Below, piece by piece: positions 35,041 to 60,036 of a stretch of 64,000 nt of DNA. Source of the DNA: Candidatus Sediminicultor quartus (GTDB lineage: Bacteria; Atribacterota; Phoenicimicrobiia; Phoenicimicrobiales; Phoenicimicrobiaceae); NCBI GenBank assembly GCA_011056645.1, contig DSEL01000185.1, forward strand, positions 2,595 through 66,594, written 5' to 3'. Below the pieces are notes generated by a model, which was not told the origin of the DNA, searched no databases, and was given only the letters and a program-made list of their open reading frames with translations. The position numbers and the translations under genes are program-made. Numbering within the stretch: position 1 is the first letter of the stretch; every line of letters begins with the position of its first letter.

Positions 35041-36231
35041 TTATCTTTTCCTTTGAATCTTTTCCAAATATCCACACTCTCTAAAAAATTCAAGAGGATT
35101 TAAAGGAACCTTCATCTCCTCTCTTACTTTAAATAAAAGAGGTGTTATATCAGTTTCAAAGGCTTCAGTGAGCACCTTCTCCGCCATAATTATATCTTCA
35201 TCTTGTTGGAATTTTTTCAAAGATCTTCTATCTACAATGAGAGCTTTTGCATAGATTTTATGAATATTTACAACACTTTGGATCATTTCTTCAATTTTTG
35301 GCTTAAGATTGTGACATTGGTCTATCATATAAGCTATGTTGGCTTTTATTCCATCCTCTTCTGCTGATACCAGTTCATTGAAAATAAGGAAAAATTCATA
35401 AGGATTTATAGAGCCCACAGTTAGGTCATCGTCAGCATATTTTTTATTATTAAAATGGAATCCTCCCAACTTTTCCTCATCTAAAAGATAGGCTACTATC
35501 TGTTCTATATTGGTGCCTAAAGCGTGATGTCCTAAATCAACCAATACCATCGCCCTATTCCCTAATTTTAAACACAAATTATATGCGCTACCCCAATCAG
35601 GTATATCGGTATTATAAAAAGATGGTTCAAAAAATTTATATTCTATAAGTATTCGCATATCATCTGGTAAATTATCATAAATTTCTTTCAAACTATCTTC
35701 TAATCTATGCTTTCTCTCTCTTATATCATCCTGCCCGGGATAGTTGGTTCCATCGCCTAACCAGAGAGAAATATCCTTGGATTTAAGTGTCTTGGCAATA
35801 TTGATACACTCCAGAACATGATTGATAGCTTTTTTTCTCACTTTTTTATCAGGATTACAAAGACTCCCCAATCTATAATCCGGGTCTTGAAATAAATTGG
35901 GATTTATAGCTCCCGGTTTTATTCCCAAAGAAAGAGAATATTCTAAAAGAGCATGCCAATTATCAGTGATATCCCAAGGGATATGTAAAGCTATAGACGG
36001 ACATATGCCGGTGATCTTATGTACTTCTGCTGCATCCTGAATTTTTTCCCTTACACTATTAGCAGCTCCTTTTTGCTTAAAAATTGCAAAACGAGTTCCT
36101 GAATCTGAATAACCCCAACTTGGAGTTTCAATCTTTAATTCCGTTAACTTTTTCTCAATTTTACTTACATTAATTCCCTTCTCTTCCAAAGAGGATTTTA
36201 ATATTTTATAACTTGTTTTATAATCTCTCAT
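35041..36231 (-). CDS. rhaA: L-rhamnose isomerase-like sugar isomerase (RhaA family TIM barrel)
   Basis: 396 aa. N-terminal GINVSKIEKKLTELKIETPSWGY resembles RhaA GIDVEEALRQL...HCWQG. Later blocks IALHIPWD, LGIKPGAINPN, LVDLGHH and GGFHFNNKKYADDDL fit RhaA-family metal/active-site regions as recalled. Confidence 0.6.
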   Translation of the reverse strand: MRDYKTSYKILKSSLEEKGINVSKIEKKLTELKIETPSWGYSDSGTRFAIFKQKGAANSVREKIQDAAEVHKITGICPSIALHIPWDITDNWHALLEYSLSLGIKPGAINPNLFQDPDYRLGSLCNPDKKVRKKAINHVLECINIAKTLKSKDISLWLGDGTNYPGQDDIRERKHRLEDSLKEIYDNLPDDMRILIEYKFFEPSFYNTDIPDWGSAYNLCLKLGNRAMVLVDLGHHALGTNIEQIVAYLLDEEKLGGFHFNNKKYADDDLTVGSINPYEFFLIFNELVSAEEDGIKANIAYMIDQCHNLKPKIEEMIQSVVNIHKIYAKALIVDRRSLKKFQQDEDIIMAEKVLTEAFETDITPLLFKVREEMKVPLNPLEFFRECGYLEKIQRKR

Positions 36232-36291
36232 TTTAATCAGGATAAATAACCCTATTCCTCCTTTCTTTAGAATATATCTTTGTTTTCTGTT

Positions 36292-37245
36292 TTATTGAGA
36301 ATGATTCTTTAAAAATTCTTCCACTTCCTGGCGATAAGGCATAGCAGGAGCAGTACCAATTTTGGTTACATTGAGACTGGCAACAGCATTGGCAAAATAA
36401 GTCGCATCCACTAAATTCTTTCCTTCAGAAAGAGCAATAGCCAAGCCTCCATTAAAAGCATCTCCTGCTCCCGTAGTATCCACAATCTTTACTTCCTGGA
36501 AAGTAGGTACATGGGTAATCTTTTTAGAATTTACTACTAAAGCTCCTTCTTTACCCAGAGTAACCACCACATCTTTTACTCCAGCAGATATCATTTCTTT
36601 TGCAGCTTTTTCAGCTTCTTCAATTGTATTAACATTTCGATTAGTAATAAGCTCTAACTCACTTCTATTGGGAGTGATTAAAGATACTTTCTTTAAAATA
36701 TCTTTCTCTAATTTCTTCCCCGGAGCAGGATTAAGAATAGAAATAGTATGGTTAGATTTATACACCAGGCTTATAACATGTTCTACGATTTCCACCGGAA
36801 TTTCTAACTGCAGTAGTACTATATCTGCACTCATAATGAGATCTCGGGCATTTTCTACCAATTGAATATCTATTTCCATGTTAGACCCAGGAGCTACTAC
36901 TATCATATTTTCAGCAGTTTTATCATCTACTAAAATAAAAGCCATTCCCGTGTGTTGAGTTTTGCTTACCTTAAGATAGTCAATGTTGATCCTCTCTTTT
37001 ATAAAATTATTTCGGGCAATCTCCCCGAAATAATCTTCCCCTACACAACCGACGAAACAAACTTCGGCACCTAATCTTGCCGCCGCCACAGCTTGATTTG
37101 ATCCTTTCCCTCCAGGGCCTAATTTAAATGGCCCTCCCAACACAGTTTCTCCGTGTTTTGGAAGCCAGGGAGTTTTGGACATCAAATCAGTATTATAACT
37201 TCCCACAATTACAATCTTATTTTTTTTCAAACGAATCACCTCCAT
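36292..37245 (-). CDS. rbsK: ribokinase/PfkB-family carbohydrate kinase
   Basis: IVIVGSYNTDL, GGKGSNQAVAAARLGA, and DTTGAGDAFNGGLA anion-hole motif; 317 aa. Confidence 0.85.
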   Translation of the reverse strand: MEVIRLKKNKIVIVGSYNTDLMSKTPWLPKHGETVLGGPFKLGPGGKGSNQAVAAARLGAEVCFVGCVGEDYFGEIARNNFIKERINIDYLKVSKTQHTGMAFILVDDKTAENMIVVAPGSNMEIDIQLVENARDLIMSADIVLLQLEIPVEIVEHVISLVYKSNHTISILNPAPGKKLEKDILKKVSLITPNRSELELITNRNVNTIEEAEKAAKEMISAGVKDVVVTLGKEGALVVNSKKITHVPTFQEVKIVDTTGAGDAFNGGLAIALSEGKNLVDATYFANAVASLNVTKIGTAPAMPYRQEVEEFLKNHSQ

Positions 37246-37248
37246 AAA

Positions 37249-38112
37249 CTATCCTTTTACCGCTCCAAAGGTCAAACCTCTTACTAAATATTTCTGGAAA
37301 AATACTACCAAGATAACTCCGGGGATAATTGCAACCAGAGAAAGAGCCGATAATTCTCCCCATTGAATTCCATGACCCCCGATTAACTCTGAAAGAACTA
37401 CCGGTAGAGTTCTTACATTGGATCTGGTAAACATAAGGGCAAAAAGAAATTCATTCCAGGCAAAAACAAATACAAATAGTGCTGATACTACCACTCCGGG
37501 AATAATTAAGGGAAAGGTAACTTTCCGAAAAGCCCCAAAACGAGAATAACCGTCCACTAAAGCCGCAAACTCGATCTCCTCGGGTAGGTCTTCAATAAAT
37601 CCTTTAATTAGCCATATAGCAAAAGGCAAATTGATCAATAAATAAGACCATATCAAAGCAAAGTAGGTATCCACTATCCTTAAATATCTAAAAATATTAA
37701 ACAGAGGTAATACAGCGATGATAGGTGGTGCAAAGAGTAGAGAAAGAACAAAAAAAGATAAATTTGGTCCTCCAAATTTAAATCTTCCTAATCCGTAACC
37801 GGCAAAAAGGGCGAGAACAACCACTAAAGCAGTACCGATACAGGCTACAATAAGACTATCTACTGTTCCTTTTGAACCACCCAAAGAAAGTGCACGAGTA
37901 AAATTATCAAATTTAAAATGAGTAATCCAAAAAATGGGAGGATAATGGAAAAATTCTCCTTTTTCCTTAAAAGCCCCTATAAAAATCCAATAAATGGGAA
38001 AACCAAAAAGTAGAACAAAAAAAGTAAGTAATAAGTTTTGAAACCAAGTGCGTAATTTTTTCCTTTTTTCTCTTTGCCTAAATTCTTTTAATTTTTTATC
38101 ATTCATACCCAT
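37249..38112 (-). CDS. carbohydrate ABC transporter permease (CUT1, MalG/UgpE-type)
   Basis: 6-TM permease with EAA-loop region ...FAALVDGYSRFGAFRKVTFPL... Confidence 0.85.
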   Translation of the reverse strand: MGMNDKKLKEFRQREKRKKLRTWFQNLLLTFFVLLFGFPIYWIFIGAFKEKGEFFHYPPIFWITHFKFDNFTRALSLGGSKGTVDSLIVACIGTALVVVLALFAGYGLGRFKFGGPNLSFFVLSLLFAPPIIAVLPLFNIFRYLRIVDTYFALIWSYLLINLPFAIWLIKGFIEDLPEEIEFAALVDGYSRFGAFRKVTFPLIIPGVVVSALFVFVFAWNEFLFALMFTRSNVRTLPVVLSELIGGHGIQWGELSALSLVAIIPGVILVVFFQKYLVRGLTFGAVKG

Positions 38113-59080: not shown

Positions 59081-59117
59081 TTTATTTACCTCCTTTTTTA
59101 ATATAATGAAAACTATT

Positions 59118-59133
59118 TGATAATATATTATCA
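59118..59133. promoter_or_regulatory. perfect 16-bp palindrome TGATAATATATTATCA overlapping the -10 of the rhaS-operon promoter; candidate DeoR operator
   Basis: Perfect palindrome. A second TATCA/TGATA palindrome, TATCATGATA, lies at 59161-59170. A minus-strand promoter has TTGACA at 59153-59148, a 17-nt spacer, and TAATAT at 59130-59125. The divergent plus-strand promoter has TTGACT at 59181-59186, 17 nt, and TATAAT at 59204-59209. Confidence 0.5.
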
Positions 59134-59271
59134 AGTTATTATCTTTATGTCAAGAAATTTTATCATGATATCTTCAATTATTGACTTTGTTTTCATCATA
59201 TAATATAATAAAAACGATAAAATGTTGTAAATAAAATTGAGCAAAAATCACTAAATAGGTGGAAATGGTTT

Positions 59272-60036
59272 ATGGGCAAGGCAGAACGTCTCGAAAAAAT
59301 GTTAGATTTAATCCAAAATAGTAATTTTATCTCCCCGGTGCAGCTTGCTGAAAAAATGAATGTATCGCTGGTAACTATTAGAAGAGATCTTAAAAAATTA
59401 GCTGATCAAAGATCTATAATAAAGGAATACAACACCATTAAAATAGCTCGAGATTACGATAAAAGATTTCATGAAAGGCTTAATACTAATCTCGAACAAA
59501 AAAGAATAATAGCAGAATTAGCTAAAAGATTTGTGCAGCCAGGAGATACTATTTTTTTAGATACCAGCACAACTTGCTACGAGTTTGCTCGTACCTTGGC
59601 ACTCTCCTCTCATAATCTACATATTATCACCAATAATATTTACATGGCAGTTGAATTAATGAGTATTTATAAGATAGATTTGGTTCTTGTGGGAGGGAAT
59701 ATAAGACATGGATACTTCTCAACGATCGGTCCACTCGCAGAACAAATGTTGTCAAATATAAAAGTTACTAAATTCTTCTTCTCCTGCACAATGTTAGATA
59801 CCCGAGGTATTTATGAATCTAATGTCATGGAAGGGAACATTAAAGTAAAGATGTTCGAAAATTCCAGGCTTCATTATCTTTTAGTAGATTCCAGTAAATT
59901 TGACAAGGCATCAATCTTTCGCACCACCGGCATTGAAAATGTAGACTCAATAATTACAGATAAACCTTTGGCAAAAGAATACCTTGATAAATTAAAAGAT
60001 AGAAAAGCGGAAGTTATTACTCCGAAAAATGATTAA
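59272..60036 (+). CDS. DeoR-family transcriptional regulator (rhamnose operon regulator RhaR-like)
   Basis: N-terminal HTH ISPVQLAEKMNVSLVTIRRDLKKL plus DeoR C-terminal sugar-phosphate sensor domain. Divergent from the rhaS operon. Confidence 0.85.
   Translation: MGKAERLEKMLDLIQNSNFISPVQLAEKMNVSLVTIRRDLKKLADQRSIIKEYNTIKIARDYDKRFHERLNTNLEQKRIIAELAKRFVQPGDTIFLDTSTTCYEFARTLALSSHNLHIITNNIYMAVELMSIYKIDLVLVGGNIRHGYFSTIGPLAEQMLSNIKVTKFFFSCTMLDTRGIYESNVMEGNIKVKMFENSRLHYLLVDSSKFDKASIFRTTGIENVDSIITDKPLAKEYLDKLKDRKAEVITPKND

Follow-up and report, generated by a model that had tools for sequence, protein, structure and literature searches.

A split L-rhamnose gene set upstream of an SPU2-type bacterial microcompartment operon in Candidatus Sediminicultor quartus

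The locus described here lies in a stretch of 64,000 nucleotides (the window, to which all coordinates refer) of contig DSEL01000185.1 of Candidatus Sediminicultor quartus (Atribacterota; assembly GCA_011056645.1), and combines an operon for a bacterial microcompartment (BMC) with genes for taking up and breaking down L-rhamnose. An earlier reading made from the letters and open reading frames (ORFs) only (hereafter the sequence-only reading) had described a complete rhamnose route wrapped around the BMC and implying L-lactaldehyde as its substrate. For the present analysis, ORFs of at least 80 aa were mapped across the 64-kb window and their translations scanned against Pfam and NCBIfam, and 44 genome and 58 metagenome loci (tblastn; locus labels L005 and so on) were compared, with a neighbour-joining tree built from P1, P2, and PduS. 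Computation thus covers the identity and synteny of the genes, the indels, the conservation of promoter and operator, the extensions at N-termini, and one Cys-to-Asp change. In the database search, exact matches to the window proteins were found in metagenome contigs only.

Profile scans and gene order delimited a BMC operon of the SPU2 type at 27403–34824 on the minus strand. It encodes, from its upstream end, a BMC-H shell protein (34501–34824), two BMC-P proteins (33675–34469), a PduS-like flavoprotein (32322–33644), a two-domain, PduT-like BMC-T(s) (31747–32301), an acylating aldehyde dehydrogenase (ALDH; 30269–31714; PRK15398, 657 bits), two further BMC-P proteins (29546–30081), an RpiB-like protein (PF02502; 28965–29528), an adjoining deoxyribose-phosphate aldolase (DERA; PF01791; 28122–28937; TIGR00126, 271.9 bits with a cut-off of 117), and PduL (27403–28074). 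For the shell, the operon has four EutN/CcmL (BMC-P) genes and single genes for BMC-H and a two-domain BMC-T; neither a BMC-T(dp) nor a triose-phosphate isomerase gene was detected within the window. The ALDH is 86–94% identical to ALDHs of Atribacterota metagenome-assembled genomes, and the same BMC gene order, at 86–97% identity, is present in Ca. Atribacteria RBG_19FT_COMBO_35_14 (L012). Because this co-linear locus, from a 92%-identical metagenome-assembled genome, is labelled SPU2 in the BMC catalogue (Sutter 2021), the BMC of the window was assigned to that type. The sequence-only reading had correctly recognised a BMC with an acylating ALDH and PduL whose cargo includes DERA and RpiB in place of a class II aldolase, as the profile matches and N-terminal extensions support, but had held the combination not to be a described paradigm, which does not stand. 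The SPU type, defined by DeoC together with RpiB, has been known since its description from Atribacteria single-cell genomes (Axen 2014), the SPU2 subtype was added later (Sutter 2021), and the type has grown since its first description to more than 280 loci, 26 phyla, and seven subtypes, with the DERA and ribose-5-phosphate isomerase (RPI) of SPU6 characterised biochemically (Dwyer 2024).

In the RpiB-like protein of the window the catalytic Cys66 is replaced by Asp, the motif reading MIDGAGIG. The corresponding motif of E. coli RpiB is ICGTGVG. All SPU RPIs carry Asp at this position, the SPU6 RPI showed little or no isomerase activity (it was nearly inactive on ribose-5-phosphate) and a packaging role was proposed for it, and the SPU6 DERA cleaves deoxyribose-5-phosphate (dR5P) efficiently (Dwyer 2024). 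The earlier argument that an L-rhamnose isomerase side activity of the RpiB family might open alternative cargo chemistries therefore falls. All four cargo enzymes bear N-terminal extensions of a helix and a linker, of 59 aa in DERA, 42 aa in RpiB, approximately 45 aa in the ALDH, and 33 aa in PduL; in the ALDH, an amphipathic helix at residues 7–21 followed by a linker precedes the domain and constitutes a putative encapsulation peptide. By inspection, the catalytic motifs of DERA (Lys and Asp seen), ALDH, and PduL appeared intact when judged against the family motifs. Scoring of hydrophobic moments was dropped as a means of finding encapsulation peptides, since folded domains scored as high, and the encapsulation calls consequently rest on an extension ahead of the catalytic domain. 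PDB neighbours of the ALDH were likewise dropped as a guide to its substrate, the top matches (5JFL and 4C3S) being BMC ALDHs of several types.

The rhamnose genes are encoded on the minus strand, apart from that of the regulator. RhaS (58073–59134; TIGR02637, 468 bits, cut-off 342) is followed by RhaT (56468–57967) and RhaP (55475–56455), whose best NCBIfam matches are RbsA/XylG/AraG-type ATPases and AraH/RbsC-type permeases, respectively, and which are 68 and 70% identical to their counterparts in the rha cluster L113 of an unrelated genome; RhaSTPQ as a whole is 66–72% identical to that of L113. The RhaQ permease and, C-terminal to it, the RhaM mutarotase (TIGR02625, 116.6 bits, cut-off 99.6) are joined at 54154–55482 in one ORF of 442 aa. 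In relatives (L049–L051) two separate, adjacent genes encode them; here the strain may truly have fused the two, or else a stop codon was lost or the assembly is in error. Downstream lie a stand-alone RhaE-type class II aldolase (53174–54091; PF00596) and a rhamnulokinase-like FGGY kinase, RhaB (51666–53093), which at 490 bits stays just below the TIGR02627 cut-off of 528 but has its next-best family at 140 bits and shares 66% identity with the L113 kinase. The isomerase, at 35041–36231, is of the RhaI type (TIGR02635, 632.8 bits, cut-off 531) and matches the P. stutzeri L-rhamnose isomerase 2HCV over its full length (E = 5e-102), whereas it is only marginally similar to E. coli RhaA (31 bits to the RhaA Pfam model). 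Divergent from rhaS, on the plus strand, is a DeoR-family regulator (59272–60036; Pfam HTH_DeoR and DeoRC) that is RhaR-like by position and falls below all NCBIfam equivalog cut-offs (best AgaR, 144 bits; E. coli DeoR, 64 bits). The rhaS/deoR intergenic region contains a perfect 18-bp palindrome, TTGATAATATATTATCAA (59117–59134), a candidate operator of this regulator; it overlaps the TTG start assigned to rhaS by the ORF caller, and the real rhaS start is probably M19. All rha genes named in the sequence-only reading were thus found where it had placed them, although the isomerase is RhaI rather than RhaA and the kinase misses its cut-off narrowly.

The aldolase is a probable L-rhamnulose-1-phosphate aldolase. 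It aligns with residues 14–216, the N-terminal RhaE domain, of the models for bifunctional aldolase/short-chain dehydrogenase (SDR) proteins (RhaEW), and an H-x-H motif and a His as metal ligands are visible by inspection. As relatives are called at 263–267 aa, its true start is probably M44 (53962); for the same reason, the 43-aa N-terminal stretch was rejected as an encapsulation peptide, relatives starting at the equivalent of M44. Homology searching placed it in a family of stand-alone proteins of approximately 260 aa, of which the 52–53%-identical members are encoded, in other phyla, next to rhaT or flanked by rhaA and rhaB. L113 encodes a 53%-identical aldolase in the textbook order RhaS-T-P-Q-M-RhaA-aldolase-RhaB, and a similar rha cluster occurs in Treponema (L112). 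The Atribacterota rha operon corresponds to an L113-type cluster minus the isomerase, so that RhaI, the sole isomerase available to the route, would be needed from its place beside the BMC to make the route complete. Homology and cross-phylum synteny together support a complete phosphorylative L-rhamnose route predicted to end in dihydroxyacetone phosphate (DHAP) and L-lactaldehyde. The end products proposed earlier were thereby supported, as was the assignment of RhaI and the aldolase to the rhamnose pathway. The profile scores are consistent with the canonical clusters L112 and L113, and the rha system can be recognised as a variant of a pathway already known.

The arrangement of these genes is not one of wrapping around the BMC. 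The window as a whole is a sugar island, encoding no fewer than four ABC importers for sugars and four FGGY kinases, besides an aldehyde:ferredoxin oxidoreductase (AOR) and numerous SDR and medium-chain dehydrogenase/reductase (MDR) proteins. All rha genes lie to the same flank of the BMC, upstream of BMC-H (34824). Between RhaI and RhaB/aldolase is a gap of approximately 15–16 kb filled, in order from RhaI, with genes for a ribokinase, an ABC transporter of the CUT1 type that has two MalK-like ATPases, a cupin, a sorbitol-dehydrogenase-like MDR, a 439-aa SDR, a PHP protein, an alpha-beta-fused E1, and E2. The Pfam/NCBIfam scan of the window ORFs found no rha genes on the opposite flank, which holds two GlpK-like kinases, two Zn-dependent alcohol dehydrogenases (Zn-ADHs), a second DERA without extension, and SDRs.

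RhaI and BMC-H are separated by 216 bp (34825–35040, minus strand), in which a sigma-70-like promoter was predicted at 34909–34881 (TTGACA-17-TAAAAT with an upstream TG), the best match of its kind in 19.5 kb. An operator-like palindrome, TGTCAGAAAAATAACA, follows at 34860–34845 and abuts the ribosome-binding site of BMC-H. The combination of TTGACA-17-TGTTAAAAT and TGTTA-N6-TAACA is conserved in 39 distinct sequences upstream of BMC-H (loci L005–L111), with constant arms and a variable spacer, and this holds with RhaI, DUF772, a DeoR remnant, or a cupin gene upstream; two outgroup loci (L092, L094) carry two tandem copies of the palindrome. Its half-sites and spacing equal those of the E. coli DeoR operator, TGTTAGAA-TACTAACA, which controls deoC and responds to dR5P, and the predicted site fits a dR5P model of the SPU compartment. 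The rhaS/deoR palindrome differs from that of the BMC, and no significant motif common to both was found. A scan of the window for TGTTA-N6-TAACA with at most one mismatch returned 7 matches, with 3.8 ± 1.9 expected, and relatives do not keep the one upstream of the cupin gene as a palindrome; an operator shared by the BMC with the rha promoters, or with those labelled module B, was rejected on these grounds as a sign of co-regulation. An Rfam scan of the whole window revealed no riboswitch and no other RNA family.

The composition of the operon and its predicted operator also bear on a reductive, condensing function, which is the interpretation given to the atribacterial DERA/RpiB/ALDH locus in the part of PMC6281690 that cites Nobu 2016. 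There, the BMC would act as a sink for NADH and a carbon store: acetyl-CoA would be reduced to acetaldehyde, which DERA would condense with glyceraldehyde-3-phosphate to dR5P, while sugar cassettes would supply triose phosphates and reducing equivalents. The PduS-like flavoprotein and PduT-like BMC-T are present for electron transfer, and DHAP from the rhamnulose-1-phosphate aldolase could feed the triose pool. However, the extended PduL accords with an oxidative flow in which acyl-CoA becomes acyl-phosphate, the characterised SPU DERA cleaves dR5P efficiently, and the DeoR-operator-like site hints that a catabolic substrate is the inducer. We therefore consider this function very unlikely here.

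Comparison of related loci showed that the rha genes occupy a variable slot. Its outer flank, comprising ParA, FtsZ, and DUF772 genes (60066–62898, minus strand), directly abuts BMC-H in L010, L062, L085, and L102; in L082 only a DeoR remnant remains between flank and BMC-H, and in L011 and L096 another ABC cassette is found there. These losses of the rha block are scattered on the neighbour-joining tree. The 25-kb block thus behaves as an indel with limits at 35041–60036 and was lost several times while the BMC was kept. The flank, with its ParA, FtsZ paralogue, and 214-aa DUF772 transposase-domain protein, forms a conserved outer boundary of the slot (also in L092 and L100), and the DUF772 gene is 59–92% identical across relatives, which is unusual for a transposase fragment. 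No rha genes were found within 10 kb of the SPU loci of Spirochaetes, Anaerolineae, Deferribacteres, and Latescibacterota. Ahead of two Spirochaetes SPU loci (L015, L020) lie genes for an FGGY kinase, a Zn-ADH, SDRs, and a regulator of the GntR family, homologous at 21–38% identity to genes elsewhere in the window, which encodes a GntR protein at 17698–18453; sugar or polyol genes may be general neighbours of SPU2 loci.

The inner part of the slot is variable as well. The cassette at 36292–43389 (minus strand) contains genes for a ribokinase-family kinase (RbsK; 36292–37245; TIGR02152, 342 bits, cut-off 299.65), a CUT1 binding protein with two permeases and the two MalK-like ATPases (37249–42876), and the cupin (42892–43389); it occurs in some relatives and is missing from others. 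RhaI directly follows the MDR gene in L098 and L073, and in L005 the ribokinase gene alone stands between them. The gene upstream of RhaI accordingly varies between ribokinase, MDR (L098, L073), cupin (L075, L095), and another cassette (L069, L075). This last (L069, 4218–7189; L075, 3306–6277) encodes a protein of the mannitol-dehydrogenase family, a PfkB kinase of 383 aa, and a cupin resembling D-lyxose isomerase; as it replaces the ribokinase and ABC genes, RhaI is retained next to the BMC although the sugar genes around it differ. Ahead of the cupin gene of the window is a very AT-rich gap of 397 bp (43390–43786). L049–L051, three independent contigs of other assemblies, end approximately 200–270 bp past the MDR gene, at the position of this gap, which may be a recombination or assembly breakpoint marking the cassette boundary.

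Between RhaB and this cassette the rha operon continues, on the minus strand, with five genes for a 2-oxoacid-dehydrogenase-type E2 (50321–51556), an 818-aa alpha-beta fusion of E1 (47795–50251), a 440-aa PHP phosphoesterase-like protein (46433–47755), the 439-aa SDR (45078–46397), and the 422-aa sorbitol-dehydrogenase-like MDR (43787–45055), all identified by profile scans. The order RhaP-Q-M-aldolase-RhaB-E2-E1-PHP-SDR-MDR is kept in other Atribacterota (L049–L052, L098), while L112 and L113, rha clusters from other phyla, lack the five genes. Within the window no E3 gene was detected, and no described counterpart of an E1/E2-containing extension of a rhamnose operon was found in the literature. 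The first approximately 170 residues of the SDR align with the inter-domain part of the RhaEW models, so that aldolase and SDR together resemble a split RhaEW, an enzyme shown to turn rhamnulose-1-phosphate into DHAP and L-lactate. Candidate roles for the extension are conversion of lactaldehyde via lactate and pyruvate to acetyl-CoA, or a redox branch acting on sugar phosphates. The best 120 matches to the PHP protein were all 82–100% identical to it, the few with source names being Atribacteria or "bacterium"; the family is modest in size (147 clusters at E < 1e-30 in a library of 50%-identity representatives) and has varied fusions, and was dropped as a guide to function.

This extension bears on whether the operon serves rhamnose in the first place. 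It could instead serve another 6-deoxy or rare sugar, with the E1/E2/PHP/SDR/MDR set performing the main C–C cleavage or a reductive branch, and lactaldehyde would not be the chief product. Conservation of the five genes would suit such a role, as would the SDR, which matches sorbitol-6-phosphate dehydrogenase best, the resemblance of the MDR to sorbitol dehydrogenase, and the nearest PHP representative in the 50%-identity library (60% identical, and lying beyond the 82–100%-identical best 120), which is fused to a mannitol-dehydrogenase-family domain. The kinase is below its equivalog cut-off, and P. stutzeri-type RhaI enzymes are described in the literature as broad in specificity. Set against this, RhaS and RhaM exceed rhamnose-specific equivalog cut-offs, the transporter, aldolase, and kinase are 53–72% identical to those of the canonical L113 rhaSTPQM-rhaA-aldolase-rhaB cluster, and the cultured Atribacter laminatus grows on rhamnose. 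A dedication to another sugar hence appears quite improbable.

We favour, as probable though not strongly so, a cytosolic rhamnose route that occupies a slot of changing cassettes, upstream of an SPU2 operon with a promoter and a dR5P chemistry of its own, the enzymatic steps, regulation, and fate of lactaldehyde being deduced from homology and context. RhaSTPQ would import L-rhamnose, RhaM would mutarotate it, RhaI would isomerise it to L-rhamnulose, and RhaB would phosphorylate this product, which the stand-alone RhaE-type aldolase would cleave in the cytosol to DHAP and L-lactaldehyde. RhaI, RbsK, RhaB, and the aldolase (from M44) all start within 10 residues of their domains, and because the rha enzymes, the aldolase included, lack an encapsulation-type extension, lactaldehyde would be made in the cytosol. 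Its most likely sink would be the operon extension (E2, fused E1, PHP, SDR, and MDR) or the AOR (6480–8297). The BMC, under its own promoter and DeoR-operator-like palindrome, would enclose DERA, its catalytically altered RpiB-like partner, the acylating ALDH, and PduL, and the chemistry expected of the family would run from dR5P to glyceraldehyde-3-phosphate together with acetaldehyde, the latter proceeding to acetyl-CoA and acetyl-phosphate. The rha block would be one of several sugar cassettes that come and go between the ParA-FtsZ-DUF772 flank and the BMC. Since different cassettes swap in this slot, neighbourhood by itself does not make lactaldehyde a BMC substrate, and to take it as implied was an overreach, given the separate BMC promoter, the unextended rha enzymes, the retention of the BMC after loss of the block, and the dehydrogenase candidates within the rha operon.

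Several observations weigh against this reading. RhaI lies immediately upstream of BMC-H in approximately 26 of approximately 38 distinct informative related loci, which is the ancestral state of the main clade, and this persistence exceeds what would be expected of a random island neighbour. As no terminator-like site was predicted after RhaI, transcription might run on into the BMC operon, and the promoter and operator calls are predictions from consensus match and conservation. The SDR, as a sink for lactaldehyde, scores higher in its dehydrogenase domain with sorbitol-6-phosphate dehydrogenase (245 bits) than with RhaW-containing models (approximately 104–131 bits) and is for that reason a candidate lactaldehyde dehydrogenase only. 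Other sugar phosphates are left open as native SPU substrates (Dwyer 2024). Lastly, the cultured A. laminatus RT761 grows on rhamnose. Its gene table lists PduL, DERA, RpiB, and EutN as RT761_00615–00618 and CcmL and EutM (BMC-H) as RT761_00625–00626, with genes annotated as rhamnulokinase (RT761_00629) and L-fucose isomerase (RT761_00630) 3–4 genes from BMC-H (RT761_00626). By these annotations, deoxyhexose-type genes adjoin the BMC in a distant cultivable relative too.

Some of these observations would suit a closer coupling, in which cytosolic lactaldehyde diffuses into the SPU2 BMC, where the ALDH would convert it to lactoyl-CoA and PduL to lactoyl-phosphate with conservation of ATP, the whole forming one unit for rhamnose fermentation. 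Adjacency of RhaI and BMC despite turnover upstream of RhaI, a rha operon that is complete only through the BMC-adjacent isomerase, the missing terminator prediction, and the RT761 annotations all point this way. PVM BMCs, which process fucose- or rhamnose-derived aldehyde, provide a precedent, and if oxidation passed through acyl-CoA and acyl-phosphate, energy would be saved that is lost with a direct dehydrogenase. The nearest solved ALDHs, BMC enzymes of R. palustris (GRM3) and of the C. phytofermentans fucose/rhamnose BMC, act on C3 aldehydes, which would also agree with lactaldehyde as a substrate. On the other hand, the aldehyde-forming aldolase is unextended, unlike in PVM-type loci, and the encapsulated signature enzyme is DERA; the BMC promoter and operator are conserved, its own, and unrelated to the rhaS palindrome; the BMC persisted through repeated losses of the rha block; SPU loci of other phyla were without rha genes within the 10 kb considered; most SPU ALDHs are placed on the EUT1 (acetaldehyde) branch in the literature; and the rha operon has dehydrogenases of its own, with an AOR in the island. 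Entry of lactaldehyde into the BMC is accordingly possible but doubtful in our judgement.

A broader variant of this coupling seems unlikely, if less so than either the reductive function or the other-sugar role. The SPU2 BMC of Atribacterota would then oxidise aldehydes with conservation of energy on behalf of exchangeable cytosolic sugar cassettes, held in the slot upstream of its promoter, as well as of its own DERA, with lactaldehyde arising from rhamnose and glycolaldehyde or acetaldehyde from other sets of isomerase, kinase, and aldolase. On this assumption the conserved RhaI neighbour would mark the coupling, lactaldehyde made outside the shell would be a true substrate although the encapsulated signature enzyme acts on another, and the operon extension would form a second, hitherto undescribed branch of 6-deoxyhexose metabolism.

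Returning to the window, the genes downstream of PduL (20046–27333, minus strand) encode a galactitol-1-phosphate-dehydrogenase-like Zn-ADH, two glycerol-kinase paralogues (773 bits each), a second Zn-ADH, the second DERA, and an SDR. This second DERA, of 239 aa and without N-terminal extension, is a cytosolic-type DERA within a polyol/kinase cluster. In A. laminatus, RT761_00614 is likewise a galactitol-1-phosphate dehydrogenase adjoining PduL. A tungsten-type AOR (AFOR_N and AFOR_C, 605 aa; 6480–8297) is encoded with a ThiS/MoaD-like small protein at 6197–8297 (minus strand). It belongs to the sugar island too and might also dispose of aldehydes derived from sugars; L068 has a homologue of 36% identity approximately 6 kb upstream of BMC-H. 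No Fe-dependent alcohol dehydrogenase gene was detected within the window.

The outcome is thus mainly corrective, in that the BMC belongs to a catalogued type and the rha genes to a recognisable pathway variant. New are the persistent adjacency of RhaI and the BMC, the DeoR-operator-like site before the BMC operon, and the conserved E1/E2 extension of the rha operon. SPU is among the most widespread BMC types. If lactaldehyde did enter an SPU BMC, the view of metabolosomes as having one signature enzyme and one substrate would be broadened, and extra ATP from deoxy sugars in the energy-starved subsurface Atribacterota would be explained.

Among known BMCs, the SPU2 locus of RBG_19FT_COMBO_35_14 differs from that of the window in nothing essential. 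It shares the gene set and order, the four BMC-P genes, the extensions on ALDH, DERA, and RpiB, RbsK and RhaI upstream, and the same polyol genes downstream; the phosphotransacylase (PTAC) and PduS of the window are minority features of SPU2 overall. The SPU2 description lists a BMC-P triplet with an extra copy, a BMC-T(s), and a CcmP-like BMC-T(dp), the last of which the window lacks. PVM-type BMCs are similar in that an ALDH and a PTAC could take lactaldehyde to lactoyl-CoA and lactoyl-phosphate and in that a rhamnose route lies nearby. In PVM-like loci, however, the class II aldolase gene belongs to the BMC locus itself, and its product often bears an encapsulation peptide (according to the related MUF2/PVM description), whereas the sole PF00596 gene of the window lies 18 kb off in another operon and is unextended, the signature enzyme being DERA. 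With regard to regulation, the E. coli deo operon similarly places DERA behind a 16-bp palindrome with half-sites TGTTA/TAACA and a 6-bp spacer, but the operon of the window encodes a BMC and the window's DeoR-family protein resembles E. coli DeoR by those 64 bits only; the likeness of the operators may be fortuitous in an AT-rich genome. The closest rhamnose system is the RhaR(DeoR)-RhaSTPQ-RhaM/U-RhaI-RhaB/K-RhaEW pathway of Rhizobium, Chloroflexus, and Bacillus (Rodionova 2013), with which the window shares a DeoR regulator divergent from the ABC importer, a mutarotase, RhaI, an FGGY kinase, and RhaE in place of RhaD. It departs from that pathway in its separate aldolase and SDR, which lie four genes apart, the SDR being more SrlD-like, with only a RhaEW linker-like part, as well as in the five-gene operon extension, the fused RhaQ-RhaM, and the detachment of RhaI, whose gene stands directly upstream of the predicted BMC promoter.

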